Of a stretch of 27,089 bases of DNA, positions 1,829-25,539 are shown piece after piece (the first letter of the stretch is position 1; each line of letters opens with the position of its first letter). The position numbers and the translations under genes were made by a program. The notes under the pieces are model-generated. The model searched no databases, had not been told where the DNA came from, and saw nothing but the letters and a program-made list of their open reading frames with translations. Source of the stretch: Balamuthia mandrillaris (taxonomy: Eukaryota); NCBI GenBank assembly GCA_031835245.2, contig JAVKOQ020000016.1, forward strand, positions 372,001 through 399,089, written 5' to 3'.

Positions 1829-2221
1829 TGAGAGTCCCTTGCAAAAGTGCTGCAGGCCTTTCTTTTGTCGACACTCACAAGTAGATCTGAGGGGTCGTTG
1901 TTAAAATTTGTGTAAAAAGAAAAATGTTAATCAAAGACTCCTCAGGCTTTCCTTCATTCTTCCTTTTTTTTCTTTTCTCTTTTTTCTTCTTCGCTGTTTG
2001 TTTGGTGAGAGAAGAAAAAAAAAAAAAGGAGGGGCAGTGTTCTTTTTTGTTTTTTGTTGCAGAAGAAAGCCTTGTTTTTCCTTCTTTCTTCCTCTCCTTT
2101 CCTCCTCCCCATATTTATTTTTCTACTGCCTCTTTTCTTGGGTTTTTCTATCTTCCCAAGCGAGCAGTGAAAAAAAGAGTGAGATCTCAAACAGACAACC
2201 AAAGAACCTCCCTAAAACAAA

Positions 2222-4809
2222 ATGGAAGTTACGAGACATCACATCACCGATGATCCTGACCTTGATTCCGAGCTTCCCGCTGAGTACGCTCTCCTTGATG
2301 AGGATCCTGTGGAGCTTGACCGCGGATTTTCCACCATTATCGTCGTGGACAATTTGCCAATGGTAGATCAGGCCAAATACGAAAAGTTGCTGGGCGTTCT
2401 GCGCAAGCTCTACAGCCAGATCGGGGAAATTGTGCAGGTGGGTGATCTCTTCCCTTGTCCTTTGCCTCCCCTCCTCCTATTTTCTGTGCTCCTTTTTTTT
2501 GATTTGTCCCTCTTTGCTCTCTCTGCGCGCTCTCTCCCGCTCTCTCCTCTCTACCAAGCTCTTTCTCACTGGTTCTCCACTGGCACACAAAACAAAAGAT
2601 TTACATGCCCCAAGAACAAGGCAAGACGCTGGGTTTTGCGTTTATCGAATTTCCGGACAGCTACGCCGCTGCCAACGCTGTAAAACAAACGAATGGCTAC
2701 AAGTTGGACAAGGCCCATATTTTCAAGGTCAACCACTATGAGGATTTCTTGTCCTATGAGAAGTATAGCGATGAGTTCGAGCCTATCGAGATGAAGCCTT
2801 ACAAACCTTTGGTAGCTTCCTTCTTTCCTCTTCAGCCGTTCTGTTCCCGTTACTTATTCTCTCTCTCTCTCTCTCTCTCTTTCTTTCTCCGCTTGTAGAG
2901 CAACCTTTGGTGGTGGTTGGAAGAGGAAATTGGCGTGGCTTGCGATCAGTACGCAGTGCGATATGCCGAACATACCGAAATCTTTTGGAACGACACAACA
3001 AAGAGAAAACCAGAGTCTGTTTACAGGAAAAAGGTACGGAGACTTTTCTCCATTCTGTTGGCCTCATTTTTCTCACACCTCTCGCCCTCTCTTTTCAACA
3101 GGATATGACAGAGAGCTTCGTCAACTGGTCTCCGTACGGAACCTATCTTAGCACCCTCCATAAGCAAGGAGTGATCTTGTGGGGAGGCAAGGAATGGGAG
3201 CAAGTGCATAAGCTCCCACAATTCCAAGTGAAGCTGATGGCCTTCTCTCCCAAGGAAAGCTACCTCGTCACCATCTCGCCCCATTTCCAACACAACGACA
3301 ACCCAAAGGATCCCCAAGCTATCATCGTGTGGGACGTACGCACAGGAGCAAAGAAGAGAGGCTTTTTGGCAACCAAGGATCAGACATACCCTGTCTTCAA
3401 GTGGAGCCACGATGAAAAGTATTTTGCTAGAATGAGCGAAGACACCATCACTATCTACGAGACTCCCTCCATGCGTCTCTTGGACAAAAAGTCGCTTAAG
3501 GTCCCCGGAGTGAAGGACTTCAGCTGGTCTCCTAGCGACAACGTCATCGCTTGTTGGGTACCTGAGAGCGGCAACAAGCCTGCTCGCGTTCTTTTGATTG
3601 ATATCCCTAGCCGTAACATTAAGAGAAGCCACAATCTCTTCAAAGTCCAAGATGTAAGCTCATTCTTTCTCTCTCTGCGCGCGCGCGCTCTCTCTCTCTC
3701 TCTCTCTCCGCTTTCCTTTCGTTTTTTCACTGTGTATTATCAATGTTCACCTCACCCATTCTCTCTCTCTTTCCCCAAGTGCAACCTACATTGGCATGAG
3801 CAAGGCGATTACCTGTGTGTTAAAGTGGATAGGATCTCCGGCAAAAAGAACGTGTACACCCACTTTGAGCTCTATCGTATGCGAGAGAAAGACATTCCTA
3901 TTGAAACGGTTGAAATCAAGGAAAAAGTGGTGGCGTTTGCATGGGAACCAAAGGGCGATCGCTTTGCTGTCATTCATGGTGGTGTGGCTGGCAAGACTAA
4001 CGTCAGCTTCTACACGATGGGCAACAAGAAGGGAGAAACCAAGCTTCGTTTGCTTAGTACGTCTTACTATTTTCTTTTACGTTCTTTTCTGTTCTGTTCA
4101 TCCTTTCCAGCTAGTTTGAAGAATGCATGAAGACGTAATTGTTCTGACGAAATTCTTTTACAAAACAACAGAAACGTTGGAGAAGAAACCAGCCAACCAT
4201 CTGTTCTGGTCTCCACAAGGTGGCAACATCGTGTTGGCAGGCTTTGGCACGATGGGCGGTATATTGGAGTTCTACAACGTAGATGAGCTGATCTCCTTGA
4301 GGATAGCCATGCACAACATGGTGACGGACCTGGCCTGGGATCCAACCGGCCGCTTCGTGGCCACCTCCATCAGCTACTGGAGGCATCAGCTGGACAATGG
4401 ATGGACGGTGTGGAACTTCCAGGGCAAGGAGCTGGTCCATGTCAACAAGGACAGGTTCTTCCAGCTGGTGTGGAGGCCTCGCCCACCGACTTTGCTCTCC
4501 CCCGAGCAAGCTCAGGACGTGGAGAAGAACCTGAAGAAGTACTCCAGGAAGTACAAGGAGCAAGATTGGCAGAGGAGGAAGGAGATCTGGGAGGCTTTCA
4601 AGAGAAGGCGCGAGGCCGAAAAGGAGGCCTTCTATGCCCTCATGAACGAGAGGAGAGCGGAGAGGGCTCAGCAGAAGGATCTCCGCTTGAAGCTGCTTGG
4701 CTACGACTCGGACGAGGAGGAGGCCCAGGCCGAATGGGTGGAAAACGAGATAGAGGAGCTGATTGGCGAGGAAGAGGTCGAGATCATCGAGGACGACTTT
4801 GCCGAATAA
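2222..4809 (+). CDS. EIF3B: Eukaryotic translation initiation factor 3 subunit B (PRT1)
   Basis: Exons 2222-2437, 2599-2811, 2899-3033, 3102-3653, 3780-4056, 4172-4809, all GT-AG and in phase. RRM (IIVVDNLP..KYEKL; GFAFIEF; NGYKLDKAH), beta-propeller motifs (WSPYGTYL, FKWSHDEKYFAR, AFAWEPKGDRF, WDPTGRFV, WRPRPPTLL) and acidic tail. Confidence 0.97.
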
Positions 4810-4832
4810 TCTTTGTGTGTGTCTGTGTGTGT

Positions 4833-4925
4833 TCTCTCTCTCTCTCTCTCCCTCTCCCTCTCCCTCTCCCTCTCCCTCTCCCCCTCCCTCTCCCTCTCCC
4901 TCTCCCTCTCCCTCTCCCTCTCTTT
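4833..4925. repeat. (CT)n/(CTCTCC)n microsatellite in the eIF3b 3' region
   Basis: Directly visible tandem CT and CTCTCC units. Confidence 0.9.
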
Positions 4926-4981
4926 CTCGCCTCTCTTATCACAATGCCAAAACAAAGCTTGCTGCACTTGGACGGATCCAC

Positions 4982-5060
4982 TTTCTAACGACGTGAATCT
5001 AGATCAACAAAAAAGGAAAAAGTGCGAGTGGTTCACTAGCACCTCTCACGTCGTTAGAAA
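4982..5060. repeat. 15-bp perfect inverted repeat enclosing a 9-bp hairpin
   Basis: TTTCTAACGACGTGA (4982-4996) / TCACGTCGTTAGAAA (5046-5060); inner GTGCGAGTG-gtt-CACTAGCAC (5022-5042, one mismatch). Confidence 0.85.
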
Positions 5061-5124
5061 CTAGAGCCAAATTTTTCCCCGAAAATATTTACAAAACAAA
5101 AAAACCAAAAAAGAAAAAAAAAAG

Positions 5125-5573
5125 GAGCGAAGTGGAGAAGCAGGGCAAGAAAAAAAGTGGGAGTGCGAGCACCAACGCTGCCATCACACCGGAAAAGATG
5201 GCCAACGAGTCCTCTATGCCTCTGCAAAAGCCATGTGGAAACATGAAAGAATGCAGCGCTATCATGGTTGCGATGCTGGTTGTCCCTCTTGCTTGCGTTG
5301 GGAGGGCAAAACAAAGGGCAAAGCACAACCAACAGAAGCATTCTTTCAGTGCCGACATACCAATGGATGTATCCGTCTGTTCAAGGTTGCTTGCACCCGC
5401 TCAACCCATGAGCTTCATGATGACCACGTTAATTGCTCTGAGGACTGCCAACGGTGCGAAGATTCGAGACACACAACAGCCTTCCTGCAAATGGAGCGAG
5501 AAAAAGAAGAAGAAAAGAGACAAGAAAACGTCATGTATCAACGCAAAAAAGAGCTGGAGGAAATGAAGGAACG
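5125..5573 (+). CDS. Tandem Cys/His zinc-finger-like region; probable frameshifted N-terminus of the RAG1-like protein
   Basis: Frame 1 reads WECEHQRC..AMWKHERMQRYHGCDAGCPSC and FQCRHTNGC..TRSTHELHDDHVNCSEDCQRC, then a coiled coil ..ELEEMKER. One extra base at ~5573 would join it to MDSNRDWQ in frame 3. No ATG precedes the first finger. Confidence 0.6.
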
Positions 5574-7493
5574 ATGGATAGCAACAGAGACTGGCAAAGT
5601 GTGTTGGAAGAAAACAAAAAAGAAAGGGAAGAAGTGTACCTCAAAGAGCAAGCAAAGGCCTTGTTGCGATGTCTCTGTCCCCAACAATCATTCATGATGG
5701 CCCTTGGAGAGCTTGTAAAAAGCGATCCAGCTACGATCCACTATCTGAAAGAGCATATTAGCGAATTTCAAGAGCTTCAACAGCCACGCCACCAACCTGC
5801 ACTTTCAGTGTTACTTGCCTACAAAGAAACAGTTGGTATAACAGACAAGAACTGGAGATACACCATGTCTGTTTTCAACCTCGATGACTCCACCTCCATT
5901 CATCACCTCAACAAGCAAAAAGCAGCACTTATGGAATCCATGGAACCAAGAGTAACCCTCGGAGGGAATGGCTACGAATTGCCCCTTTTGCAATACATGA
6001 GCTGGGTGTTAGCACACAATCCTCCTCCAGAAAACAAACCAGGACAAAAGCACTTGGTGAAGTTTGCCTTTGATGGAGCCACCATGACCCAGGGCAAACG
6101 GAAAAAGCAAGAGATCGGCACCTTCAACTTCCTTTTTGATGGCCTCGAGTTAGCAAAAGCCAAGTCTGTAAACAACGCACACCAGTATCTCATTTTCCTC
6201 GGTGAGGAAGACAGAGAAGCACTACAGCTGGAACTACAGAATGCAGTGAAAGGGATAGAATACCTTGCTAACGGAGGAACTATTTGTGCCAACGGTACCG
6301 AGTATGCTCTCGAGCCTGTGCTTGTGTGCGACATGGCAGCGTTGGTACATTTGCTTGGACTCTACAGTTGCTATCATCCAAACTCGAAGTGGAAGTGTCC
6401 TTGGTGCTGCGTTGACAAGCATTCAATCGCGAACTTTGCCATCGAGTGCTGGCCCTTGCGAAACGAAGCAGAAATGTGGAGAGATGGTGAGCAAGCAGAG
6501 AAGTGTGAATCTAAGAGTGGAAAAGATCGTTTTGCCCAGAAACACTTTGGGGTGCAAAACAAACCTTTGATCAACATTCTTCTTGACCACATCATCCCCT
6601 GCATGCTACACTGCTTCATGGGAGTCATGCGCAAGCTGTTGGAACTGCTAATGGAGCAAGCACCTAACGATTCACCCCTTGCTGAAGGCTTCGAGAAATG
6701 CTTTGAGACGTTGAAGATGAAGTTACCGAAAGAAACCAAGAAGAAGAAGAAGGTCAAAACCTTGGAGCAACGGGTAAAGAAAGCAAGATTTGGCCGTTCA
6801 GACTATTTGCGTATTCTCGAGCAACGAGCTTTGTTTATGGCAGCACTAAGAAGGTCAGTGGGAGATGGGACAAGGACACAACAAACAGAAGAAATATGGG
6901 AACTGTTTGCGAAACTTTATACCCTTGCTGCCCAGCCACAAGTCATAATAACAGAGGAGGAATGGCTAAAGATGGCGCGTGAGTTTGGTTTCATGTTTAG
7001 CAAGCGATATGGAGAAGAGGAGGTAACGCCATACATACACGTTTTTGTTTACCACGTTGGATTTTATTTGCACAAGTACGGATCGGTGGAAAAGTTCGCC
7101 AACTATGCAGACGAGAGTCGCCACTCCAGAAACAAGAAAGCACCAACTAGTGGATATGGAGGGAGAAAAGGAGAGAGGAAGGTATGTTATCAACAACTAG
7201 CCTTTGCCTTCCGCCAAGAAAAGTACCTCTTCGACAAGACATTGCCTGAGCCTCAACGGAAAAGGCAACGAACACAGAAGCCCAATGTCAACTGGGCATC
7301 ACGGAATATTTGTTTACATCCAGAGATGCAGCAGTATGTTGGCTCAGCTCAGCTTCAAGAAGAAGAAGAAGAAGAAGAAGAAAAAGAAGAAGAAAAAGAA
7401 AAAGAAGAAGAAGAAGAAGAAGAGAAAGAAGAAGAAGAAGAAGAAAAAGAAGAAGAAGTGGAGAAGGAGAAAGAAAAGGAAGAAGAGATGTAA
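5574..7493 (+). CDS. RAG1-like / Transib-family DDE transposase core, intronless
   Basis: KFAFDG (D codon 6072), VCDMAALVHLLGL (D 6330), CPWC (6396-6407), PCMLHCFMG (H 6609), VTPYIHVFVYH (H 7038, 7053), GSVEKFANYADES (E 7113). Order and spacing match mouse RAG1 D600/D708/C727xxC730/H795/H937/H942/E962. Glu-rich tail. Confidence 0.85.
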   Translation: MDSNRDWQSVLEENKKEREEVYLKEQAKALLRCLCPQQSFMMALGELVKSDPATIHYLKEHISEFQELQQPRHQPALSVLLAYKETVGITDKNWRYTMSVFNLDDSTSIHHLNKQKAALMESMEPRVTLGGNGYELPLLQYMSWVLAHNPPPENKPGQKHLVKFAFDGATMTQGKRKKQEIGTFNFLFDGLELAKAKSVNNAHQYLIFLGEEDREALQLELQNAVKGIEYLANGGTICANGTEYALEPVLVCDMAALVHLLGLYSCYHPNSKWKCPWCCVDKHSIANFAIECWPLRNEAEMWRDGEQAEKCESKSGKDRFAQKHFGVQNKPLINILLDHIIPCMLHCFMGVMRKLLELLMEQAPNDSPLAEGFEKCFETLKMKLPKETKKKKKVKTLEQRVKKARFGRSDYLRILEQRALFMAALRRSVGDGTRTQQTEEIWELFAKLYTLAAQPQVIITEEEWLKMAREFGFMFSKRYGEEEVTPYIHVFVYHVGFYLHKYGSVEKFANYADESRHSRNKKAPTSGYGGRKGERKVCYQQLAFAFRQEKYLFDKTLPEPQRKRQRTQKPNVNWASRNICLHPEMQQYVGSAQLQEEEEEEEEKEEEKEKEEEEEEEKEEEEEEKEEEVEKEKEKEEEM

Positions 7494-7850
7494 AGAAAAG
7501 GAAAAATAAAGATCAGTACCAAAGACCAACACAAGAGAAAAGAGAGAAGAAAAGAGAGAGGAAAACAGGAGAAAGGAAAACAGGAGAAAGGAAGAGGAAG
7601 AGAGGAAGAGAGGAAGAGAAAAAGAGAGGAAGAAGAAGACAGGAGAGAAGAGAGAATAGAAGAGAAGCAGAAACGAGAAAGGAGAGAGAAGAGAAAGAAG
7701 AAGAAGAGAGGAAGAGAGGAAAAGAAGAAGATAGGAGAGAGAGGAGAGAAAAGGAAGAGAGAAGAGACAGAAGAGAGCAAGGAGAAAGAGGAGCGAAAAG
7801 AAAAGAGAGGAAGAGAGAGGAATAAGAGGAGAGAGGAGAAAGGATAGAAG
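7357..7850. repeat. (GAA)n / GA-rich polypurine low-complexity tract
   Basis: Nearly pure A/G; encodes the poly-E tail and separates the two convergent ORFs. Confidence 0.9.
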
Positions 7851-7864
7851 AAAGGATTTTGTAC

Positions 7865-8312
7865 CTGCTTCGGGCCATTGGAGAACATGTGATCGATTGT
7901 ACACTGCATAAAATATGGTGAACTTTGTTTTGTTCTTCAGACGTTTGATATGTAAAGGGGGCTGCAGCTTCGCATAAGAACCACGCTCATAGGTGATGCA
8001 GCTATTCTCTCCAAAGATCTCCTCGATCTGTTGCAAGGAAGAAAGGGTGGTCTCAAACTCACCGAAAAACAGTTGATGGAGGGCACTGCTGAGCTCAACT
8101 GAGAATCGGAGAGGTAAATCCCGTGGTTTCCTTGTTACTCGCTTTTTGAGCGCTGGGCCGACGGTGTCTTGCACTATTTGCACTATTGTTTGCCGCTCCA
8201 ATACTACATACGGACCACATATGAAAGGAACCGCAGAAGCCTTAAAAATAAGCTGAACACACTGTGCTTCCTCCTCAGTTGATGTGCTCTGTACGGCCGC
8301 CGCAGTGCTCAT
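7865..8312 (-). CDS. Hypothetical protein (~150-aa first exon) convergent with the RAG1-like gene
   Basis: ATG in the A-rich context used by other genes here (gacaaaATG). Complex globular-looking sequence up to WPEA, then a donor-like CAG|GTACAA and a CT-rich intron-like tract. No recognised domain. Confidence 0.6.
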
Positions 8313-8740
8313 TTTGTCTTCCCTTCTTCTTCTTTTTTTTTTTCAAGGACGACACGACAGATCTCATCAGGATCCACTTTCTATATTCTCATGACGACCC
8401 GACCCCTTAATTCCAAGTGTCTTCTCTCCAGTTGTTGTAGACAATAGGTATCACGACGACATGACTTTACCAAAAAAAAAAAAAAAGGAAGAAAGTTTGC
8501 ACCGAAAAGAAGAAGCAGAAGAATAAGACACACCTTAGGCGAAGCTTCAAAGCCACTTGGAAAGACCTCCTTGCTGGAGAGTGGTCCATCAGGAAGTACA
8601 AAAAAAGGAAAAGGAAAAGGGAGAAACAAAAGAACGACAAGAAACGAAAAGGGAGTGCAGCGAGAGAGAGAGCTCGATTTGATTTTGTTGTTTTCACTTT
8701 TCCCTCCTTCGCTGAAGAAGCTAAGGTCTACTGCTTGTCG

Positions 8741-10143
8741 ATGGAGCCCTATAACCAGTGGTCAAATAACGTCTTTCATCATCATCAGGCCCCTCCTGAC
8801 TTGAGGCCCATCGTTGGGGCTCCTCCGTTGTCCTTTCCCCTGATGACAAACTACCAAACGGGAGTTATGCCTTCGGGTGGGGGTGTTCCCCCTTACTACC
8901 CCCAACAACAACCGCCGCTACCGCCACAGTTTGATCAAAGGGGTGGGGAAGTGGGTTTTGGTAGTGGGTTTTTCATTGGTGGTGGAGGAGGTGCCGTTGG
9001 AGGTGGCGATGCCCCCTTCTTTCATGAGAACTTTCAACAACAAAACTTTGGGATTGCGCCCCCTCCCTATCAACAACAGGTTCATGGTCTGGACGGAGGA
9101 TACTACGACAGTGCCCCTTCCTCGCTCGTGGACAACGCGCCCCTCCTCACCACCCACCCCTTTGCTGCTTCCTCTTTTCCCTCTTCCTCCCCCCCTCCCC
9201 CTCTCCAGTTTTATGAAGCACCGCCTGCCAGCGAACCGCCCTCCGCGCAGGCTTTGCTGCTACAGGCTGCAGCTGCTCTCCTGAATGCTGCAAAGGCTCC
9301 TGCTCCTGCTCCCGCTTTTAGTCATGGAGGGAGCGACTTTGGAGGCGGCGACAACTCTGGAGGGGATGGAGGAAGTGGGTATGGCCTGTTGCTGGGGCAA
9401 GCACCACCGCAACAGCAGCAACAACCCCCACCACAAATACAAACACACCAACCGCCATCACTGCCATCAGACAATATCCTTGGGCCGAGCATGGAGGAGA
9501 CGGCTGCCGCTGAGCTGACTGAGGCCTGTCGTCTTTGTTTTCACATCATCGATAACCCTCCAGCAGAATACAGGTTGGTACGGCAAGCTGTGCAGGGCCT
9601 TGTCCACATCGCGGCTAAGGACGCTACATTACGCCCTGTTGTAATGCTCAAAGTCTTGCAAGTAGTCCAAGACCCGCTTCGTTATCGGTATCACTCTTTC
9701 TCTGCTCTCGTTTCCCTTGTTTCTTCTCTCTCTGCTCCATCCTTTTCACTCTTCTCTCTTTTTCTCTTTCCTTACGCCTCTGCTTGTCAACTTTCGTGGT
9801 TCTGGGGCACAGCTCCAATCCAAGGCGATACGCGGTTAGGAGCCTTGGCTACATGACCTATCACGACGAGTCATACGTGATTCCATCAATCGAGGTGTTA
9901 ACTGAGGTATGTTTACTCATATGCTTGCGTGTTTACTTGTTGAAGGAACTGACTTATCTCAACCAGTTGGCGAAACGAGAAAATGAAAATAGCAGATACG
10001 TTCGAAAGGCTGCTTTTTGTGCTCTTAGCCGTATTGGACGCAAGTATCCCTCTTTTCAAGACTCGCTTATCAACTTCTTTTTGCAGCATTACAGGGTTTG
10101 CTTCCTTTTTTTTTGGCCTTTTTGTTCTGGAGTTGGATATTGA

Positions 10144-10188
<45 letters not shown>

Positions 10189-11894
10189 ACAGAGAGATGA
10201 GAAGGTTAGTGTAAAGTGGGGGATATTGATTGGCTTAGGCAGGATGGCGCAGAGCAATTCGTTACTCCGATCGAGAATGGCAGCGCAATGGCTAGAGGTA
10301 CTAAGCACCCATCTTTCTTATTTCTTGTTGTCACAACTCTTTGCTTATATCTTACCCCTTTCCTTTGCTCTTTTGTCTGCGAAGAGCTGTGAGGATAAAA
10401 ACCTTGTAATACGGCGAGCAGGGATCAAAGGATTGGGTCATGCCTGCTGTCCTATTGGCAGTATCCTTTTCCACTCCTCTTCCTTTCCTCTTCACTTCCC
10501 TCTGTGTGTTACCTTAACTTAAAAGACGTAAAAAATGATAAAACGTTAGAAAAGAAGTGCTATGAGGTTGCTTTGAAATTGCTACAGACTGGGGGCTGCG
10601 ACCTAGAAGCCATTGCAAAGAGAACAAAGCAGTGAGTAATCTTCATTTATCCATTCTTCTGCAAGATTTGTGTTAATTATCTTGTGAAGGGATCCTTGGC
10701 GCTGTGATGACGTTTATATGGTCCAATACTCAGCCACACAATGCCTTGGATTGTTGCTACGAAGCGATCCAGGTTTGTTTTCTCTATTTTTACGAACACA
10801 CAGTCTCCAGTGAAGCAATAATAATCATTTGTGGAAATAAATAAAGGTGAATGGTGGCCGAAGTTATTGCCAGTATTTCAAGAGGTTTTAATGAATCCGC
10901 GTTACTCATCGATGCTAAAAGCTAGTGTGCTACTTACCTACGGAAAAGTCGCCTACTTTATGGACAAAAGCAACCCTCATTTCCAAAGCATTGAGGTATT
11001 TTACTTTCTTTGGTTACATGGCTATGTTTCCTGAAGATTTTAGCATGTTTTTTTAAAACAGGATTTGCTGCTTCGGTTGAGTGTCAATGATCAGATCCTA
11101 GTCTCTGAGCCTGCCTGCTATGCTCTTGTGAACTTTTCTTTGTCTCATGAACAACTCGTGCGCCTCAACCAAATGTTTTTTACCAAATACTTTGAACCAG
11201 CCTAACTCTCTCTCCACCTCTCTCTCTCTCTCTCTCGCGCGCACGCTCTCTCTCCATGCAGTACTGGCATGTGAAGGATTTGTATAAAGAAAAGTTAGGC
11301 ATCAAGAATGGAGGTAGCATTTTCACAGCAACAACGGAAGCTCTGGCCTATCATCTCAAGAGCTGGTGCAAGCTGCTCACGCGAGACTATCACCCAGTGC
11401 TCAACCAATGCTCCAACGTTATTTCCTCTCATACCAACGAAGTGCTGCCGAAGCATCTTTTCGCGACCTCAGAAGAGAGTACGGATGACAACGGAACAGC
11501 TAGTCAGCCCAAGATGTTGGCAGCTGCGGACGATGATGACGAAGAAGACGGTCCTCGGCCACCTCAAGCAAGTGATGAGGTGAGTGCATCTAGCCAACAA
11601 GAGGTAATTATTTTACTCTCTGAACATTTGTTAAAAGAGGATTCTCATCTTTCGCCTTTTAGCCATCGCCGTCTCAACGCCCATCACCAACTCCATCATT
11701 AGCAGCTGAGTTTCAAGAAGCCACCGTTGGTGATATTGCACAGGATCACAACAAACTGTTGGAACTGTGCATGCTTTTCCCTGCTGTGCTGCTAGAATCT
11801 CTCATCATGCTCATGCAGGACAAGCGCTTATTTGACGACTCACAATTTATCAACAACCTCAAGTTTCTGCTAAAAGATTACAGGGTAGCTTGTG

Positions 11895-11937
<43 letters not shown>

Positions 11938-12848
11938 TCTCTGTGCACATATGCATCGCTTTGCCCACCACCATTTATCCCTATTAGTCACAAAGCGATC
12001 TGGAACTTGAACAAACTGGTATACTGAAGCATTTTGCTGCTCTTTGTGCCTTACCTCCTCTCTTGAAGGTTTCCACTTGCTTATGCCTTCTTTATCCATT
12101 GCATAAACACTCACTTCTCTCTCCCCCTATTCTACAGGAGGGCGTTGTTACTATGATGCGGTATCCCGAGACGTTAGACAACTCGCTTTGGATATCCAAT
12201 ATGAAGCATATCCTACCAGAAGCGTCAACTATACCTTCCAATAAAGGTGTTGCCCGTGCTGCTTCTTCATTAGCTGATCCTCGTCTCCGCCTAACATCTA
12301 CTTACACCCCTTCCTATTCAACGCCGACTTCAAAAACTATCACTGCCCCATCGAACTTAACCATAAAGGCCTCAACCTCTCAAACATCCCTGCACCCTCT
12401 GCAGAAAGAAGAAACAAAGCCCTCTGCTACTCCCTCTTCTTGCAATATAAAGGAGGGGTTGGCTGCAAAAAAACGTCCTATGGAACAGAAGCAAGAAGGT
12501 GGCTGTAGTTCACTGTTGTTGGCAGCTAAAGCCAGGGCCAAGGCCAGAGCGGAGGGCATCATTGCCCAACAGCGGATGAAGATGGCACAGCAAAAGAAAC
12601 TTGTTAAAACCTCTTCCTCTGAGCTCCTGTCTTCATCTCCTTCCACACAACACCCAACAACTGAAGCACCCTTTAAACGCCTCAAAAGCGATGATGGTCA
12701 CTTGAAGCCAGCAACCATCACCACCACTCCTCTCCAATCATTGCAACATCAAAAAGAACAGCAACAACCAGTTGAGCAACAATGTGTTGTCATCAACACC
12801 ACCAGCAATGACACTGACGCCAAAAAGAGAAAACGAGAGCCTAGCTAG
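8741..12848 (+). CDS. HEAT/ARM-repeat protein with P/Q/G-rich N-terminus and low-complexity basic C-terminus, ~12 exons
   Basis: GT-AG exons chain in frame (8741-9687, 9813-9906, 9967-10095, 10193-10297 ... last exon ending 12848). HEAT-like helices PRRYAVRSLGYM, VRKAAFCALSRIG, VKWGILIGLGRM, IRRAGIKGLGH, VQYSATQCLGLL, LKASVLLTYGKV. Confidence 0.75.
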
Positions 12849-13290: not shown

Positions 13291-13462
13291 GCATTATTTG
13301 CGGAGATTCAAGCATTGCTCCCCATTTATGGTAAGTTGGCTCGGGTGGTGTTTGGCGTGTCCTGGACGGGGCATGCTGCCGGAGAGAACACAGTGCACCC
13401 TTTTCACTACCTACTCACAAATCCCAGAAAAACAGGAGAAGACTAGCTGTCGGACGACAAAG

Positions 13463-15538
13463 ATGACTACCAAGAAAACGCTGCAGGGAAAATGTGTAGA
13501 CTTTCTTCGCTCACTCCCTGACGCCCAACAACAACAGGGTGTGTTGCTGGTAATGTTCTCCAAGAGGTTTCAATCATATTGTGGAACGGATTTTAAGGCG
13601 GAGTTGAAACGGAGACAGATAGGCAAGATGAAAAAGTTCTTTGCACAACACCCAGACAAGTTTCAAGTTTTTGGACCAGATTATGCGGTTAGGGTGCGCT
13701 TAGCAGAAACCAGCAAGCCGAAAGTCTCATCTGCAACAAAATCAAATACAACACCACCGGGTTCGTCATCTGCCGATTTGCAGTCTGCTTCCACTAACAA
13801 AAAAGTTCCGACGCCACCCGTTTGCTCATCACCAAACGTCTCAAAGGCGTCCTCCACTGGTTCCTCTTCTACCCCTGAATCGGCCACCTCGTCATCTGGT
13901 TCCAAGTCTCTTTGTGAGATAAAGGCACAACCGTCGTCACGAACGCCACCACCATCAGCTGCAATCCCAAAGCGAGGCAAGTACGTGCTTTTAGATACTG
14001 AAGCTAAAGTAAGAAATGCTATGCCGGTGCGTTGTACCTCCGTTTGTCAGCGATGACGAGCACAATTAATCTAAGTATTTGGTTGTACTAGGACCTGCAA
14101 AAGGCAGGGCGAGTTGCGGTGGACTGCGAAGGGGTCAATCTTGGTCGAGAAGGTCGGCTTTGCTTGCTTCAAGTGGCATTTGAAGCTCAAGCTGGTGGAA
14201 AGGAGAAAGCGCAAGACGAAAGGGAGGAAGCCAGTGTATCCGTGGAAACACAGGTGGTGATATTTGACCTTGTCCTTTTGCCGCAATTCCCATCTGAGTT
14301 GAAGTCCCTCTTGCAAGACGGGTCTGTACCTAAAGTTATGCATGATAGCAGAAAGGACACCGAAGCGCTTTACTTCCAGTACGGAGTCACCGTCAAGAAC
14401 GTCCATGACACGCAAGTAGCCTTCGGGTTGTTGGAAAGGCTTACCAACGGCATGTCTGGCCCGAGGATTGGCCTGGATACCCTTTTGAAGCGGTTTGGAC
14501 TTCCGGGCAAGGCCAACGCTGATGAGATCGCTAAGCGATGGAAACGTGACCCGCATGTTTTTGAAACTCGGCCTTTGGATGGACAGTTCCTCGACTACTC
14601 CGCAGCAGACGTAGCGTTTCTTCTTCCTCTTTATGACGTGCTGATGGAACGAAGTCAAGCTGCAGTATTCTCTGCAGAGGCGCGAGACAGCAATCGGAAC
14701 GCAGAGTTCTATTTACCGTCTACCTACTCTTCCGCGGCTTCGCTTCCTTTGGGTGCAGAGCTCTTTGTCACAAAAAAGGGGCTTGCAGCTTCGGCAATGG
14801 AGGCCATCAACATGAGCAGCATGGGAACCAACGAGGCAGCAACTCGCGAACTGGAAATTCTACTGTCAGCTCTTCCACCAGAGCTGGCAAATGTGGTGCA
14901 AGGAGAATCCGGACAGAAGGATTCTTCTATCCTGGAGATTGTGGTGGATTTGGGGCGGCCTGTCTGCATACGCTTCTCTAACGGAGAGGAAAGCCACATT
15001 GGAGAAGTGATGGTGCAGCCCGACCAAATCTTGCGTTCCATCTTCCGTGCCAAGTTCCCTACCTTTGAAGAACCCGCTGCTGGCGACACACATTACCTGT
15101 CTCAACTTTTGACTTGTGACAATCGTACTGGTCTTCGTGAGACACTCCACCGCATCAGCGCCATTAGAGGACGAGATGGGTCAGCTCTTGGCGTGACCAT
15201 TCGTGTAGGGAAGCAAATACCAGGAGTAGCCTATCTTCTGTTTGACATCCTCCAAAAGGTTTGTGATCTGGAAAAACCCAAATCCATCTTGTTGCTTGGC
15301 CGTCCAGGCGTTGGAAAGACGACTCTATTGCGAGACATCATTCACATCCTGGCAGAAGAGTTTCATAGAAGGGTCATGATTGTTGATACTTCTGATGAGA
15401 TCGCCGGAGATGGAGAAACACCACATGCATGCATTGGAAGAGCAAGAAGGTTTGTGGTTTCAGTTCTACTTATTCTCCCTGACCTGCTACTCACTCATTT
15501 TTAGGATGAGCGTGCAGGATAGGCAAGCTCAACATGAA
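13463..15538 (+). pseudogene. LOTUS/OST-HTH-like + DEDDy 3'-5' exonuclease (EXD1/Egalitarian-like) + ycf45/SpoIIIAA-type P-loop ATPase fusion, 3'-truncated
   Basis: Exons 13463-14026, 14092-15449, 15505-15538. Exo motifs VAVDCEG, KVMHDSRKD, VHDTQVA, RPL..LDYSAADV. ATPase motifs EIVVDLGRP, TLHRISAIR, LLLGRPGVGKTTLLRD, IVDTSDEIAGDG..PH..IGRARRM. Similarity stops after QHE, before the expected Walker B DEIG. Confidence 0.8.
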
Positions 15539-15664
15539 TGGAACTTCGTTTTTGTGAATCCCATTGATAGCATCCTCTCCTTTCCAATAAACCACATTGA
15601 AACCAGATCTGCATATCACTGCTGAACTTCCATCATATCAATCTACATTATGGATTTCTGGTGC

Positions 15665-16697
15665 ATTTCACGAGATAGTAGTGGTTGGAAGGTGGGCTGT
15701 CATGGTCAAGGACCTTTTCCACTTCAAAGTGCTTGTCTTCGACAGGAGTGTTGGGAACCACAGGCTTGAGAGCACTTGGAGGAACCTTGTCTGGGAGTAT
15801 GCCGCCAGTGATGTCTTGAAGGATGTAGGCTCCGTTATCAGTGCAGTGGTGGATAATGAAGGGACTGAGAAATTTGGGATCGGTTTTGGAGTTTGCTGAT
15901 GGGTTTTTCAGCATCACCTTGTCCCTAGGAGAGAAATGGGTGTTGAAGTGTTTTTCTACATTGGTGGAGTATTTGGCAACCTTTTCATAGATGGAGGGGT
16001 AGACAATTTGCAGCATGCCCTTGGTGAGAAATGATCTCATGAGGAGTTTTTAATTTGGATCCACTTATAGGAGACTTCTTCTGCAGATTTGTCCTTGAGA
16101 GGGCGGAGAATCATAAAATGTGTGGTGATGTCCATGATGATGAAGATGTACTGATAGCCCATGAAATCTATTTGCAAGGGGCTGTGATAAGGCTGGTAAC
16201 GAAACAACCCAACGGATACCAACTTGTTGTGTGCAGGGAAAAGACCTTTAATAGAATGAAAGAAAGAAATATATATACAAGGAGAGATAGGGATAGGTAT
16301 TATGGGAGAGTGGTATAACAGGGCCTGTAAGGTTGATGGCAATATGCTCAAAGGGAAAAGTAGCATGTATCAACTTGAGAGGGTGGAAGCTGAGTCATGT
16401 AATGTTGAAGCAAAGGTATTCCTTGCAATGGCATGCTGTGTTGTGGCAGTCATTGCAAATGTTGGGCCAGAAGTAACCTTCCTTAAGAACTTTGTGAAGA
16501 ATGCTTTCAGTGCCTTTGTGGTTGATGGAGTGGAGTTGTTCTAAGATTTGTTGATGTTTGTTAGGAGGAACTGTTTTGCTGAGAAGGTCCTTGATGAAGT
16601 CATTTAATATATATGAAGGAGCCAAGGGTTGGCTGTCATTAAGTTTGATGTTGTTGATTTTGGGCTTTAGGGCCAAAGTTTTGGTGTTCTGAGCAAC
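15665..16697 (-). mobile_element. Degenerate Ty3/Gypsy (chromodomain) pol fragment: integrase zinc finger, partial core, GPY/F region, chromodomain start
   Basis: HSINHKG..GYFWPNICNDC..C; FHPLK..FPFEHIAINLTGP; TKTDPKF-like SKTDPKFLSPF; FEVEKVLDH..YYLVK. Stops, internal deletion and a nested insertion. Confidence 0.85.
16183..16320 (-). mobile_element. 138-bp solo LTR with 4-bp TSD
   Basis: Minus strand TGTTATA...TATCACA; TSD GGGC (+ strand) at 16179-16182 and 16321-16324; internal TATATATA and ATTAAA. Excision restores the integrase frame LTGPLQIDFMGYQYI. Confidence 0.85.
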
Positions 16698-16845
16698 TTA
16701 GGTTAGGGTTAGGTGCGGGTACTCAGAACCTACGGCATTCAACTCCCCATGGTCCATTCTATAAAACTCTAAGTCTATAAGTCTAACGGATAAAGTGGGT
16801 CAAAGTAGCAATTTTTTCAATTTTCATATAGGAATACCTATATAA
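16698..16845 (+). repeat. Telomere-repeat-capped junction element, copy 1
   Basis: TTAGG-TTAGGG-TTAGG (16698-16713), then 69 bp (16715-16783) identical to 21178-21246, then ~60 bp of diverged similarity. Confidence 0.9.
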
Positions 16846-16846
16846 T

Positions 16847-17660
16847 CTAACAAGATATAATCATAAAAGCATCATCATCATCATCATCATTCTCCTTTGT
16901 CTTTTCCTCTTCATCCAAGATGGAAATAACTGTAGTGGTAGTAAAAGTAGGAGATGATGATGGGGAGGAAGTGTTGTCATTATCATCATCATCTGATTTG
17001 TCAAAGTCCTCATCGTGGACCACCAAGTATTTGGCCTTCAAAGTGTCCAGATTGTTGGAGAATTCTGTGAGGAGATTGCACCATTTATCATAGCAATCAT
17101 TGTTGGTTCGACATTGGGTAGGCAAGTGTTTGGCAATCTCCAACCAAGACCATTCATCATGCAAGTGCCAAGTGACAAGTGTACGGATTTCTGGTGCCTG
17201 CCAAGTGATCCGTTGTCAATGGCCATTCTTCCAATATTTGAATTGACTGGATAACAATTGTTGTCACTGAAGCGCTCTGCGAACTTGTTGTCGTCATGGT
17301 GTTTGTTTTTTCGAGTCAGGACTCTTGTCATCATCATCATTGAGAGAAGCAAGGGAGGAGGATGATTACTCTTGATGAGGGGTGAGGAATGCTTTGTGAA
17401 TGGGTGATTTATTGACCAACTTGGGAAGTATAGGAGCTACAAACTCATCCACCAGCTCATTCAAGCCACTGAAAAAGCTTTGTAGAATGTCAGAGATGTG
17501 TTGATGGCACAGCTGGCGATGAATATTGGGCCAACGAAGAGGAGATTTGTTTTTGGCCTCATAGGTGGCTGCAGCTTCAGCTAGCACATCCTTATCAAAC
17601 TCATCTGGATGATTTTCTACCCAAGCGATATAACATTCAAGCCACAAGAACACAAGAGAA
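16847..17660 (-). pseudogene. Myb/SANT (trihelix or telobox-like) DNA-binding protein pseudogene with acidic tail
   Basis: RITWQAPEIRTLVTWHLHDEWSWLEIAKHLPTQCRTNNDCYDKWCNLL (~17069-17212), in-frame TGA at 17216-17218 just upstream, further coding-like sequence at 17366-17653. Confidence 0.75.
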
Positions 17661-17929
17661 AATAATAGATTATTTTAGATATAACAAAACCATTTTAAAC
17701 CATTTTAAACCAAAAAAACCTTGCTTGACTGAAAAAGACTAAAAAAGACTAGTTTAGACCAAAAAAGCCCAAACAAAACCAAAGATGAAAAAAGATAAAA
17801 ATAGCCAAGATCAAACAGAAAAACCATTTCATACCAAGACTAAAAAAGACCAAACTAAACCAAAGGTTAAAACAAGATTTCAAGTTCATTCAAAGTATAC
17901 AAATGTAACCCAACTAGTTTGTATCTGCA

Positions 17930-18335
17930 AAGAGTGGAGAGCAGAGAGTGTAGACTGAAGAGGGAGAGTGGAGAGTGGAGAGTAGAGAGCAGAGAGCAGA
18001 GAGCAGAGAGCAGAGAGTAGAGAGCGGAGAGCAGAGAGTGGAAAGTGGAGAGTGGAGAGTGTAGACCAGGGAGCAGAGAGTGAAGAGCAGAGAGCAGAGA
18101 GCGTAGACTGGAGAGCAGAGAGTGTAGACGGGGGAGCAGAGAGCAGAGAGTGTAGACCGAAGAGCAAAGAGTGTAGACCCGAGAGTGGAGAGTGGAGAGC
18201 AGAGAGTGTAGACCAAAGAGCAGAGAGCAGAGAGCAAAGAGTGTAGACCAGAGAGTGGAGAGCAAAGACTGGAGAACAGAGAGCGTAGACTGGAGAGTGT
18301 AGAATGTAGACCAGAGAGCAGAGAGTGAAGAGTGG
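17930..18335. repeat. Compound minisatellite of AGAGCAG / GGAGAGT / AGAGTGTAGAC units
   Basis: Directly visible 7- and 11-bp units. Confidence 0.9.
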
Positions 18336-18399
18336 ATAGTAACACCTCAAGGTCTTTTGTTTTTCCTCTTTGCTAGGCGAGGAGCACTTTTTGAGGTGC

Positions 18400-18650
18400 A
18401 AAAAAAAAAGCAAACAACCAAACAAACAAACAAACAAAACAATGTTAGTTACTAAAACAATATGTTGAAAGAAGAAAAAAATAAACAAACCTTACAGGTT
18501 CTGTTTCTACAGTTGTTGCCTTTCTTTTCTTGGTATAGAAGTTGAAATCAATGAATGAAACAAGCAAACAAACAAACAAATAAACAAACAAACAAACAAA
18601 TAAACAAACAAACAAACAAACAAACAAACAAACAAACAAACAAACAAACA
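18400..18650. repeat. (AAAC)n microsatellites
   Basis: Tandem AAAC runs at ~18410-18440 and ~18560-18650. Confidence 0.9.
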
Positions 18651-18764
18651 ACCTTGCAGGTTCTTTTTCTGTAGTTGCTGTTGCCTTTCTTTTTGTGGAG
18701 TTGGGTTTGGACCTTGTAAAAAAATGTTAACAATCCAAAAAGAACACAACGAGGGACAACAAAC

Positions 18765-19155
18765 TGTTAGAACCTGAGCATAGAACCAAGACAGGAACCA
18801 AGAGAAAGATGGGAGCCAAATGTATTTAATGAGAGGAAGAAAACAAGTGTGTTTGTGAGTGTGTTGTTTCTTTGTTTGTTCATCTGTGTGTTCTTGGTTG
18901 TGGGAAAAGCATTTATAGTTGAGAAGGCAACCAAGGAAGGAAAGGGGCTCGGGGTTGGGGAGTGACTTCTTGGTTTCTTTGTTCTTAAGTTCTAGGCTTG
19001 GGAAAGTTCCAGGGAAGGCAGGAGAAAGATCTTCAGAATGGCTCAGTGTTGACATAAAAGATCGATGATAGCTGATGTGAGATTGTTGACAGAAAAGAGA
19101 AAAGAAACAAAGAAAGAAACAAAGAAAGAGTTGGTTATGTTGGCAGTTGCCAACA
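18765..19155 (-). repeat. 3' LTR (~391 bp) of the second Gypsy element
   Basis: Minus strand begins TGTTGG immediately after a polypurine tract and ends CTAACA; contains TATAAAT and ATTAAA; no PBS follows. Confidence 0.7.
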
Positions 19156-19170
19156 TCACTTCCTCCTCCA
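19156..19170 (-). promoter_or_regulatory. Polypurine tract of the Gypsy element
   Basis: GGAGGAGGAAG(TGA) between the chromodomain-ORF end and the LTR TG. Confidence 0.75.
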
Positions 19171-21159
19171 CAAAGAGGCGATTTTACCTTTCTTACGCAT
19201 ACGTTTCCAATAATTGTCAATAGTGCTGAGGTCGTCAAAGTGACTTGGAGGTTCCCAGGAGTCACCTCCAGGGCCGTAGCCTTTTCAGCAGACTAAATAC
19301 TCACAGTTGCGGGCAGAACCACGATGATTAACAATGAAGCGAACCTCATAGCGTTTCGAAGTGGGATCAGTGGAGTCCAAAGAAGAGGAAGGGGAAGAAA
19401 GTGGCTTTGGTGGATCAACTTTCTTCAAGAAGGAAGGTAGAACCGTATCAGGAACAGGTTGACCAGTGAGATCTTCTAGGCAGTAAGCACCGTGACAGGT
19501 ACGTTTGATGACTCGGAAAGGACCAAGGTACTTGGGATCAGTTTTGGTGTTAGCACCAGAGTTTACAAGCATTACAGTGTCACCAGGAGCAAAGGAAACA
19601 AGAGGAGCTTTCTTGTTGAATGAGTCAGCGATTTTGTTGTTATATTCTTCAGTGGCAAAGGCAGCAGAAGGCCAAACAAGAGAGTGAAGGTCGATAATCT
19701 GCTTTTGACGTTCTTCAGGGGAGAGCGCCGAAGAAGTAGAAGAAGAAAAGTTGTCTGGCAGGTTTGAGGGACGACTGAAGAAGAGCTTGAAGGGAGAGGA
19801 ACGATGACGAGAGGTGTAGCGATCATTGATACCTTTCTGTACAGCTGGAAGAAAGGTAGACCAGGAGGACCAGTCACCGTTGAGAAGTGTGAAGAGAAGA
19901 GATTTGGCCAGTTTAACGTGACTCTCAGCAGCACCGTTAGCTAGGTTCTTGAAAGCGGTCAATACAGCGTTGGCAAACTCTGTACCATTATCTGATTGAA
20001 TGATTTTGGGAAAACCAAAATCGCAAATAAACTGGTATAGAACTTGAGCAGTGGCAAGAGCGCTTTTGTCGGAGAGAGGTCGAAGAAGAGTGAAGCGAGT
20101 GGCCATATCAACTAGTAGGAAAAGCCATGTTCGTCAGAAGGAAGAGGGCCGAAGAGGTCGATAGCAATGTGATCAAATGGATAAGTAGCGGCAATGGTCT
20201 TCAAAGGATGAAAGCCATGTTTAGCCACGTTGAAGCATCGGCAAGCATCACAAGAGTGCGTGACGAAGTAACAGTCAGAGCAGAGAGAAGGCCAGAAGTA
20301 TCCTTCATTCCAAATTCGATTGAAGATATGGGAGGCACCTTCATGAGTTTCAGAGTGAAACTTTTGAAGAAGTTCTTGTTGTTGTTCCAACGAGGGGGCA
20401 GTCTTATCGTGGAAAGTCTTGATAAAGGCAGAAAGATCCTTCGACGGAGAAGAAGGAGGAAACTGATCAAGCTCAATCTGAAAAAGAGACGAGAGGGAAG
20501 ATGACTCAGGTGTAGACAAGGCGGAAGGCGAAGATGAGGAGGTCTTAGGAGTCAGAGTCTTTGCATATTGAGGGATTATCGGCCTGGTTAGACCAGCCAA
20601 ACCATCCTCTTCCCAAAAATTCTTCGGATAGAGTCAAGAGAGGCAGTCTTCAAGGATCATTTTGATTCCAGGACGATGGACAACGTCAAAGTTGTACTCG
20701 AGGATGATGTAGGCCCAGTTGTTAAGTATATAATTGGAGTGCTTGGAAGTGAAGAGATAAGTGAGAGCCTTGTGATCAGTGAAAAGGGTAAAGCAGCGAC
20801 CATAGAGCCAGCACTGAAATTGCAGAAGAGCAAAGACAACAGCAAGGAGCTCACGTTTCGTAGCCAGATAGTTGCGCTGGGCATCGTTGAGGGCACGGCT
20901 AGCAAAGGCAATGTAGTGACGTTGCTTGTCCGGGGTCTCTTGGTAGAGAACAGCACCAACACCATTCTGGGAGGCATCAGTTCCAACGAGAAAAGGGAGA
21001 TCAGGAGCAGGAATGCTCAAGACAGGAGGCGAACTGAGGATGCGGCAAAGAGCATCAATAGAAGCTTGACAATCAGCAGTCCAGAAGGGTCGGAGATCAC
21101 GGACGTATCGAAGAGTGTCAAGAGGAGCCGTAAGGCATGCAAAACGAGGGATGAAAGGC

Positions 21160-21309
21160 TTAGGGTTAGGGTTAGGGGCGGGTACTCAGAACCTACGGCA
21201 TTCAACTCCCCATGGTCCATTCTATAAAACTCTAAGTCTATAAGTCAATTGAATAAAGTGGCATAATGTTACGATTTTTTCAAATTTCTCATAGAAGAAC
21301 ATATTCAAT
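21160..21309 (+). repeat. Telomere-repeat-capped junction element, copy 2
   Basis: (TTAGGG)3 at 21160-21177, then the 69-bp block identical to copy 1. Confidence 0.9.
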
Positions 21310-21419
21310 ATGTGTTGCAACTAAGTGCTACACTGGTGGTTAATTGAACAGAAAGAAAAATAAAAAAAAGTGTTGTTCTGGCCAACTAATAAAAAGAAAG
21401 AACTTCTGGAATCTTGGTA

Positions 21420-22045
21420 CAAAGAAAGAAAAGAAAAAAAAACAAAAAGGAAAAAAAAGAAAAGAATAGAAAGAGAAAAGAGGAAAAAGAAAAAAATGAA
21501 AGGAACAATAAGAGAAAAAAAGAGCTAAAAAGAAAAGTAGGAAAAGTTAAAAATAAAAAGAAAAAGAAAGAAAGGAAAAGAAAAAAGAGAAAAACAGAAA
21601 AAGAGAAAGGAAAAAAAAGGAAACAGAGAATGAGAAAGAAAAAGAGAGAAAAAATAAGCAAAAATGAAAATGAAAAAGAAGATATAAGAGAAAAAAAAGA
21701 AAATGGGAAGAAAGAGAAAAAAAGAAAAAGAAGAGAACAAGAAAAAGAAAAAAGAAAAAAGAAAAAAGAGAAAGTGAAAAAAAAAAGAGAAGAGAAAGAT
21801 AGAGGAAGAAAAAAAAAGAAGCAAAAAGAAGAAAGAAAAGAGAATAAAAAGAAAAAAAAGAGAAAGATAATGAAAGAAAAAGAAAAAATGAAAAAAAAAG
21901 AGGGAAGAAGAGGAAAAGAAAGGAATAAAGAGAAAAAGAAGAGAAAAAAGAAAAAAGAAAAGGAAGAAAGAAAAGAGGAAGAGGAAAAGAAGAAAAGAGT
22001 GAGACAAAAAGAAAGAAAAGAAGCAAAAAAGAATAAAGACAATGA
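21420..22045. repeat. A/G-rich low-complexity tract, copy 1
   Basis: Collinear with 24908-25535. Confidence 0.85.
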
Positions 22046-22049
22046 AAAG

Positions 22050-23640: not shown

Positions 23641-23699
23641 CTGTTGTTAGAAAAATACAATCAAGTTTAAACAAAACTGAGTCATGTAAGGAAAAAAGT

Positions 23700-24020
23700 G
23701 AGAGTGGTTCAAATTAAGGGTGTGAAAGTAGCGCTCCAACGGAGCGCTAACCTCGAGCAGGATTTTGAGAGAGGATGACAAAAAATAAAAACAACCAAGT
23801 CCCAACAGAACAGGGTTGTGGGAGGAGAAAAGAGGAAGTGGTGCAAAATAAGAGAGCGAAAGCAGCGCTCCGACAGAGCGCTAACTACGTGAGTGATTTT
23901 GGGCAGGGGTGAAGAATAATAAAAAGAACCAAGTCTGAACAAAACAGGGTTGTAGAGGGAAAGAAGAGGAAGTGGTGCAAAAGAGGAGCATGAAAGCAGC
24001 GCTCCGATGGAGCGCTAACT
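23700..24020. repeat. Diverged 135-bp satellite units (~3)
   Basis: Palindrome variants at ~23729, 23864, 23997. Confidence 0.85.
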
Positions 24021-24907: not shown

Positions 24908-25535
24908 GAAAAAAAGAATAAAAGAAAAAAAAAAACAAAAAGGAAAAAAAAAGGATAGAAAGAGAAAAGAGGAAAAAGAAAAAAAATAAAAGGAAAAACA
25001 AGAGAAAAAAAGAGCTAAAAAGAAAAGTAGAAAAAGTTAAAAATAAAAAGAAAAAGAAAGAAAGAAAAGAAAAAAGAGAAAAAGAGAAAAAAGAAAGGAA
25101 AAAAAGGAAACAGAGAATGAGAAAGAAAAAGAGAGAAAAAAAGAGCAATAATGAAAATGAAAAAGAAGAAATAAGAAAAAAAAAGAAAATGGGAAGAAAG
25201 AGAAAAAAAGAAAAAGAAAAGAAAAAGAAAAAGAAAAAAGAAAAAAGAAAAAAGAGAAAGTGAAAAAAAAAAGAGAAGAGGGAGATAAAGGAAGAAAAAA
25301 AAGAAGCAAAAAGAAGAAAGAAAAGAGAATAAGAAGAAAAAAAAGAGATAGATAATGAAAGAAAAAGAAAAAATGAAAAAAAAAGAGGTAAGAAGAGGAA
25401 AAGAAAGGAATAAAGAGAAAAAAGAAGAGAAAAAAAGAAAAAAGAAAAGGAAGAAAGAAAAGAGGAAGAGGAAAAGAAGAAAAGAGTGAGACAAAAAGAA
25501 AGAAAAGAAGCAAAAAAGAATAAAGAAAATAAAAA
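24908..25535. repeat. A/G-rich low-complexity tract, copy 2
   Basis: Collinear with 21420-22045 and followed by the same AAGCTTTCTCTGTCCAACTAAGTTTGCATC. Confidence 0.85.
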
Positions 25536-25539
25536 GCTT

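Follow-up and report, generated by a model that had tools for sequence, protein, structure and literature searches.

A 27,089-nt stretch of Balamuthia mandrillaris DNA, called the window throughout, contains a long open frame in which a first-pass annotation made from the letters alone had recognized a RAG1-like enzyme. The locus raises the question of whether an amoeba carries a recombinase of the RAG1/Transib lineage, and whether such a gene is recently mobile or domesticated. The answer that we consider probable is a multi-copy, 3455-bp, two-gene DNA transposon with a predicted RAG1-fold transposase, likely a distinct branch of the CMCT (CACTA-Mirage-Chapaev-Transib) elements, found in Amoebozoa.

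The transposase core, its predicted fold and its relatives

The plus-strand frame at 5574–7493 runs for 639 amino acids without a stop in the window sequence, and the RAG1-like transposase core within it (5589–7493, plus strand), assigned from its DDE and zinc residues, a profile and a model, includes a Glu/Lys-rich tail. The first catalytic Asp lies at 6072 (residue 167) and the second at 6330 (residue 253), followed by CPWC, a CxxC motif, at 6396–6407 (C275/C278), LH at 6606 (H346), HxxxxH at 7038–7053 (H489/H494) and the Glu at 7113 (residue 514), with 261 residues from the second Asp to the Glu and 20 from the second His to the Glu. These positions and spacings are as first annotated, and the residues are conserved in an alignment of 101 proteins, most covering at least 180 profile positions, drawn from 159 proteins with near-duplicates removed. 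Counting the rows that have a residue at the column, D167 is kept in 59/62, D253 in 66/66, C275 in 70/73, C278 in 71/74, H489 in 63/69, H494 in 62/64 and E514 in 57/67, a range of 85–100%; as judged from this alignment, chance is excluded as the source of the conservation. An arginine at 6786 (R405) is placed on R848 of RAG1 by the HMM alignment, with low posterior probability, and its column holds R or K in 65/83 rows of the family alignment. In RAG1, R848 suppresses transposition, and RAG1L proteins usually have Met there (10.1101/2023.08.20.553239). We tentatively treat the equivalence of the two arginines as a lead.

When an AlphaFold2 model of the core (pLDDT 91.2, pTM 0.87) was compared with solved structures by Foldseek, a check for which RAG1, BbRAG1L and HzTransib had been named beforehand, RAG1 came first (E 4.6e-15, TM 0.55–0.63), with BbRAG1L (TM 0.56), HzTransib (0.33–0.51) and the P element (0.37) lower, and the structural alignments with RAG1 and RAG1L show only 13–15% identity. 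A family profile searched against the PDB matched BbRAG1L at E 6.2e-9 and RAG1 at E 1e-6 to 1e-3, HzTransib being absent from the 11 rows at E ≤ 10. Nor did a structure of EnSpm, Chapaev or Plavaka turn up in the PDB searches as a rival to RAG1. The single protein P0001 gave zero Pfam matches and no real match among PDB sequences, and 2 of the 101 aligned proteins match the Pfam RAG1 family weakly (E 0.0085), with none matching Transposase_21 or Plavaka among 25 of 32 Pfam families listed. In the Atlas comparison, RAG1, Transposase_21, Plavaka (28% of members) and DUF1280 clusters appear at similar levels, those of Plavaka and Transposase_21 scoring 0.86–0.89 with TM 0.56, and the structure rows that reach the naming bar are all RAG1. 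Profile, model and Foldseek together support the annotated RAG1-like DDE enzyme with a zinc site and the RAG1-core-like transposase fold by which Transib is recognized, as far as a predicted model can carry it. A match of fold speaks for likeness in working, not for membership in a lineage.

The closest proteins, 99–100% identical, are listed by NCBI under Balamuthia mandrillaris, where they are called 'myosin-VIIb-like', 'Caldesmon' or hypothetical; the first two are wrong database names for these transposases and are corrected here. The profile search gathered 952 representatives at E ≤ 0.001, and the organisms named among 20 family proteins looked up are Balamuthia, Planoprotostelium, Heterostelium and Acytostelium, so the protist host that had been surmised from the letters is borne out by relatives named Balamuthia and other Amoebozoa. 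Zero transposase relatives were found among the viral contigs and prokaryote genomes searched, and Rfam gave zero matches. At least two further divergent transposase subfamilies (P0005/P0009 and P0024/P0033/P0160–P0162) carry the same species name; their divergence is seen in a quick tree of family members only, with long branches. Other arrangements occur as well: P0015 joins a transposase of the family to a Ulp1/Peptidase_C48 domain (E 9e-19), and in locus L009, at 4463–7091, Tc1/mariner-like and Harbinger-like frames, named by eye, are nested around a distant transposase relative.

Element ends, copies and the frame break

The core lies within a multi-copy transposon that spans 4965–8419 (plus strand). 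Its left terminus, CACTTGGA at 4965–4972 (plus strand), is repeated on the minus strand at the right terminus (8412–8419), where it reads TCCAAGTG on the plus strand, giving a terminal inverted repeat of 8 bp. These termini were fixed by loose ends in public read contigs: the left loose ends, at 4962/4965, lead into two other left flanks and the right ones, at 8419–8421, into at least three other right flanks, all of the alternative flanks breaking exactly at CAC and GTG. Two metagenome loci used for comparison, L002 (3159 bp) and L004 (3715 bp), likewise end in CACT..AGTG, and all three elements have the 5'-CA..TG-3' termini of CMCT elements. Read depth in run X1, which with X3 forms one sample, is 528 in the core and 51–113 on the flank contigs, a rough figure that does not give a copy number. 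Five NCBI accessions fall into one 90% cluster, and P0001, P0002, P0010 and P0012 differ from one another by 0–1 substitutions in the aligned core. The element is recently mobile and is not a domesticated recombinase: near-identical accessions, sharp CAC/GTG ends and differing flanks favour the first of the two options that the annotation had left, since a single copy, absent mobile ends and an intact frame, as domestication would imply, are none of them what is found. A CACAATG at 4940 was also considered as a Transib end; its partner is absent, and the reads place the end at 4965.

At the left end, a subterminal inverted repeat spans 4974–5068, with arms at 4974–4996 and 5046–5068. Such a repeat is present at the left end of 4/4 elements, in a sequence that differs between them, and the DNA fold z there is -5.2 in the window, -3.1 in L002, -2.8 in L001 and -7.4 in L004, whereas the three right ends are without such a fold (z +1.1, -1.2 and -1.1). 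A 14-bp motif at 8370–8383 (plus strand) is a direct repeat of left-end bases 4974–4987, and its first 11 bases also occur at the left end of L002; this repeat was rejected as a target site duplication (TSD) because both copies (at 4974 and 8370) lie within the element.

No TSD of 1–12 bp flanks the window copy, where TGCTG on one side faces TCTTC on the other, so that in this one copy, with unpaired flanks, neither the 5 bp of Transib nor the 2–5 bp of CMCT elements is seen. A TSD is also absent, weakly, in L002 and L004, whose contigs end 3–19 bp from the termini, and neither of the two other right flanks whose bases could be read one by one agrees with any of the three left flanks known. 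This absence is only suggestive, because the left and right junctions were examined separately, their flanks not being tied to one insertion, because the ends of L002 and L004 are short, and because some flank consensuses are mixtures.

The annotation had taken the frame for one whole intact gene; the stop-free 639-residue core stands, the intactness does not. The termini of the element, its further copies and its convergent second gene had all escaped the annotation. The transposase gene starts about 460 bp upstream of the 5574–7493 frame, in another frame spanning 5065–5586, and this N-terminal part (5110–5586, plus strand; its start codon not fixed) combines two Cys/His repeats with a charged helix. 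The repeat pattern C-x-H-x(1-3)-C...H...H...C...CxxC occurs twice, at about 5164–5292 and at 5350–5457; the Cys/His part recurs in L001, L002, L005 and L006 by tblastn, and its motif in 12/14 long family members tested. Between it and the core lies a frame break at about 5587–5588 (plus strand), two extra bases relative to the same-species proteins P0002, P0011 and P0012, which, like the relative P0008, have the N-terminal part in frame with the core. The contigs of runs X1 and X2 carry the window's version at this position. The remark that the frame shows no internal stops, unlike the retroelements nearby, is therefore misleading, because the window copy is broken upstream of it. NCBI model P0010 skirts the break through a plus-strand intron at 5454–5551 (by inspection); no plus-strand joints over the element were seen in the contigs of four runs, which does not prove their absence. 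The window copy is likely unable to make a full-length transposase and likely non-autonomous, with its second gene intact, as far as can be read from the sequence, and it would then move only in trans. No annotated same-species copy can be called intact from its sequence: seven residues are missing from P0002 and from P0012, and P0011 is truncated.

Smaller irregularities were seen in the same region. The X1 and X5 contigs have 11 more letters than the window, probably in the A-rich tract at 5091–5126, where the window has no start codon for the transposase, or no clear one. The transposase genes of L001, L002 and L004 contain apparent plus-strand introns or frame breaks; L001 and L002 share one such site just after the N-terminal domain, which the window copy does not have.

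The convergent second gene and the antisense RNA

A second gene, ORF2, is convergent with the transposase. It starts at 8312 on the minus strand, and its exon 1 (7865–8312, minus strand; NCBI model P0159, two accessions) is joined across a 512-nt GT-AG intron (7353–7864, minus strand), GA-rich on the plus strand, to the coding part of exon 2 with the stop codon (7288–7352, minus strand), giving a product of 170 aa. The splice from 7865 to 7352 is seen in the X5 and X10 contigs, whose loose ends at 7865 equal 7323–7352. Convergent homologues of ORF2 occur in 5/11 loci (L001, L002, L004, L005 and L006), and as L005 and L006 are one element, the gene is present in four related elements. It was not found at the other 6/11 (L003 and L007–L011). 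ORF2 may mark only a subclade, because no match was obtained in L007 and L008, which have about 2 kb of downstream DNA, in L003, which is short, or in L009–L011, which are distant. ORF2 is conserved across elements that are 26–50% identical, and in all 10 ORF2 pairs codon identity is lowest at position 3 (0.23–0.37) and highest at position 2 (0.49–0.78), a pattern that indicates purifying selection.

A model of ORF2 built from five sequences (pLDDT 82) is alpha/beta and contains no propeller. Pfam gave zero matches for the five ORF2 proteins, kelch included; PDB sequences, Foldseek PDB and Foldseek viral gave no match, nor did VIA wide (best Z 4.2, rmsd 2.7, 72 aligned) or Atlas (0.75). In these searches the predicted protein is without a known family or fold match, which does not by itself make its fold a new one. 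ORF2, so modeled, is not RAG2: 170 aa do not suffice for a kelch propeller, the predicted structure is alpha/beta, and no kelch family matches in Pfam. Beside ORF2 in L001, at 3212–4114 (plus strand), lies a TET/JBP-like dioxygenase gene, with a Tet_JBP match below the cut-off (E 0.034) and a visible HxD..H motif. We infer its status as transposon cargo, because the contig shows no right end; TET-bearing transposons have so far been described from fungi (PMC12730594).

RNA of the ORF2 strand continues across the whole transposase. The X2 and X5 contigs define a non-coding antisense extension at 4919–7287 (minus strand), in which each of the 10 joints within the transposase is an intron of the minus strand (nine GT-AG and one GC-AG), some with alternative donors; the eight introns, which come in addition to that of ORF2, lie at 5485–5639, 5745–5818, 6132–6263, 6455–6564, 6701–6760, 6829–6915/6922, 6966–7034/7038 and 7147–7226, all on the minus strand. 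Zero such joints occur in the X1 contigs, and raw RNA of run X18 yielded two reads from about 3% of the run, too few to inform; the run types are guesses, X5 being labelled 'DNA?'. The antisense exons were also considered as protein-coding and rejected, each frame having 14–25 stops once they are joined. The same arrangement is found in another element, that of P0008, which is 47% identical to the window element and of which L005 and L006 are spliced minus-strand forms: 11/11 gaps between L006 and P0008 fit minus-strand GT-AG (CT..AC) and 0 fit plus-strand GT..AG, against a mean of 1.3 over 256 end pairs and a next best of 9, and L005 keeps one intron that L006 has spliced out. What the two elements have in common is read-through of the ORF2 strand along the entire transposase. 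The splice sites may be opportunistic, because the window and P0008 elements share no antisense intron positions.

These observations allow another reading of the second gene: ORF2 would be selfish cargo that plays no part in transposition, and the antisense introns would reflect cryptic splicing noise in read-through RNA. This reading concerns the proposed roles only and leaves the transposon itself untouched, and we regard it as a doubtful but real possibility. The lack of conserved antisense intron positions, the lack of a long frame in the extension and the six loci without ORF2 would all suit it; on the other side, the position, orientation and purifying selection of ORF2 are kept in elements saturated at silent sites, and a second element likewise shows read-through of the whole transposase.

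Relation to known transposases and a possible mechanism

The amoeba element resembles RAGL/ProtoRAG (BbRAG1L-BbRAG2L, TransibSU and AanRAGL) in its RAG1-fold DDE enzyme with a C2H2 zinc site and a long D2-E interval, in its CAC ends and asymmetric subterminal structure, and, as in ProtoRAG, in its convergent second gene. It differs in that its sole second gene encodes 170 aa of predicted alpha/beta structure and no six-bladed kelch RAG2-like protein, RAG2 being what defines TransibSU (PMC4411706); in its 8-bp terminal inverted repeat and the missing 5-bp TSD at the window copy; and in lacking a Chapa/RING motif. A pattern search of P0002 found neither the CCGHC C-terminal tail nor the GRP(R/K) nonamer-binding motif (as defined in 10.1101/2023.08.20.553239), and two Chapa zinc-finger patterns from PMC1131882, searched as exact patterns, are absent as well.

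With Transib (HzTransib; Subgroups I and II, PMC9435367) the element shares a length of 3–4 kb, DDE, S..C..C, CAC..GTG ends and low copy number, but it has two genes, an N-terminal double Cys/His repeat, no TSD that was seen, where Transib is defined by one of 5 bp (PMC1131882), and a model that matches HzTransib less well than RAG1. An ordinary Subgroup-I-type Transib with a passenger gene, its TSD lost by recombination between copies or by an assembly join across the repeat, therefore has to be weighed, and we think it rather unlikely. Best solved matches to RAG1 and RAG1L, asymmetric ends beginning with CAC and junctions checked separately, with flanks not tied to one insertion, are compatible with it, as is the 261-residue D2-E interval, which is nearer to RAG1 (253) than to insect Transib (206–214; PMC1131882). 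It sits poorly with the absence of the CCGHC tail, GRP motif and Chapa motif, with a terminal inverted repeat of just 8 bp, with Cys/His repeats specific to the family, with the lack of a TSD, weak as it is, in L002 and L004 as well, and with an ORF2 kept across such divergent elements.

The whole CMCT clade is defined by C(2)C and H(3-4)H motifs in the interval from the second Asp to the Glu, and its members make TSDs of 2–5 bp (PMC12730594). The element has a DDE enzyme with both motifs, and shares them and its CA..TG ends with EnSpm/CACTA, Mirage, Chapaev, Plavaka, ESTA and Lanisha (PMC12730594), as it shares the TET/JBP-like gene adjoining one relative, L001; it differs from them in having no significant Transposase_21 or Plavaka match among the Pfam families listed, a convergent ORF2 without a family, and a window copy without a 2–5-bp TSD. 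A CMCT element of the EnSpm, Plavaka or ESTA type, in which ORF2 has the role of CACTA TnpA and for which RAG1 ranks first as the sole solved relative, would account for the CAC..GTG ends, which are found in fungal EnSpm, for a RAG1 match, since ESTA, a fungal lineage, also matches RAG1 by HHpred (both PMC12730594), for the Plavaka and Transposase_21 clusters in Atlas, and for the TET/JBP-like gene, as in fungal CMCT elements. We judge it improbable, since none of the 101 proteins matches those Pfam families where two match RAG1 weakly, and the Atlas rows that reach the naming bar are all RAG1. A single-copy, domesticated host recombinase, an amoebal analogue of RAG, is largely refuted and very improbable, for the arginine tentatively aligned to R848 and the missing TSD, which would suit it, are set against a number of near-identical copies whose ends are sharp and whose flanks differ, a frame-broken window copy and several additional subfamilies recorded as Balamuthia mandrillaris.

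The separate amoebozoan CMCT lineage is thus the reading that we prefer. As for the RAG1/Transib lineage named in the annotation, the RAG1-like fold held up, the lineage only in part: the Atlas scores are comparable for other families, and because the motifs are common to the CMCT clan, direct RAG1/Transib descent is not shown, nor is membership in RAGL or Transib. A RAG1-like enzyme outside animals is likewise supported and yet no novelty, as AanRAGL and fungal and plant Transibs are published RAG1-like transposases from outside animals (PMC9435367). An amoebozoan two-gene lineage was not described in the literature searched, which did not cover Repbase, most subscription journals or bioRxiv supplements, and the text of the PMC9435367 supplement, figure images aside, has zero occurrences of amoeba-related terms. 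The transposases of the Dictyostelium DDT elements are said to be unlike known ones (PMC5633606). Spy (PMC4122938) also cuts and pastes without a TSD, a likeness if the absence is general in the amoeba element; it is, though, a PHIS-group element, and its transposase is of another kind.

By homology with RAG1, BbRAG1L and HzTransib, a transposase dimer would bind both CAC ends, cut the element out through a nick and a hairpin, the route that RAG, BbRAG1L and HzTransib take (10.1101/2023.08.20.553239), and insert it elsewhere. Less firmly, the two N-terminal Cys/His repeats might bind the left subterminal inverted repeat. ORF2 could be an accessory or regulatory protein that assists or restrains transposition, a functional stand-in for RAG2 or for CACTA TnpA rather than a homologue of either. 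Its long antisense 3' extension may keep transposase expression low, and the antisense RNA likely lowers transposase output.

Models of RAG origin assume a single capture of RAG2 by a Transib, early in eukaryotes. A mobile amoebozoan RAG1-fold lineage with a different convergent partner would offer an outgroup and a natural comparison for that origin, bearing on the role of the second subunit in RAG1-like enzymes and on whether such an element can stay mobile with an arginine where RAG1 has R848 and with its TSD lost; ORF2 adds a protein family without a known fold match. The boldest form of the proposal, which we hold to be unlikely, is an undescribed RAG1-like lineage of superfamily rank in Amoebozoa, with an independent RAG1-RAG2 layout and a partner of new fold, the arginine by which vertebrate RAG1 suppresses transposition, TSD-free joining into breaks in the manner of RAG signal ends, and a check by antisense RNA from the partner gene.

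The element begins 155 bp behind the stop codon of an intron-rich gene (2220–4809, plus strand) with RRM and eIF2A-type WD40 matches, likely eIF3b, and an X5 contig crosses the left element end into this flank. About 320 bp from the right end, and divergent from ORF2, starts another intron-rich gene (8740–12848, plus strand), with a Pro/Gln-rich start, helical HEAT-like exons and zero Pfam matches. A third gene (13460–15504, plus strand) combines a P-loop NTPase (weak SpoIIIAA/AAA matches) with a 3'-5' exonuclease domain (PF01612, E 3e-19) and runs at about 15590 into broken pieces of a Gypsy-like LTR retroelement (15591–21227, minus strand; RNase H, integrase H2C2, rve and SH3). In the remainder, 21400–27089, long tracts are rich in A and G and hold tandem repeats with units of 330 bp (2.8 copies) and 134–135 bp (2.5 and 6.6 copies).
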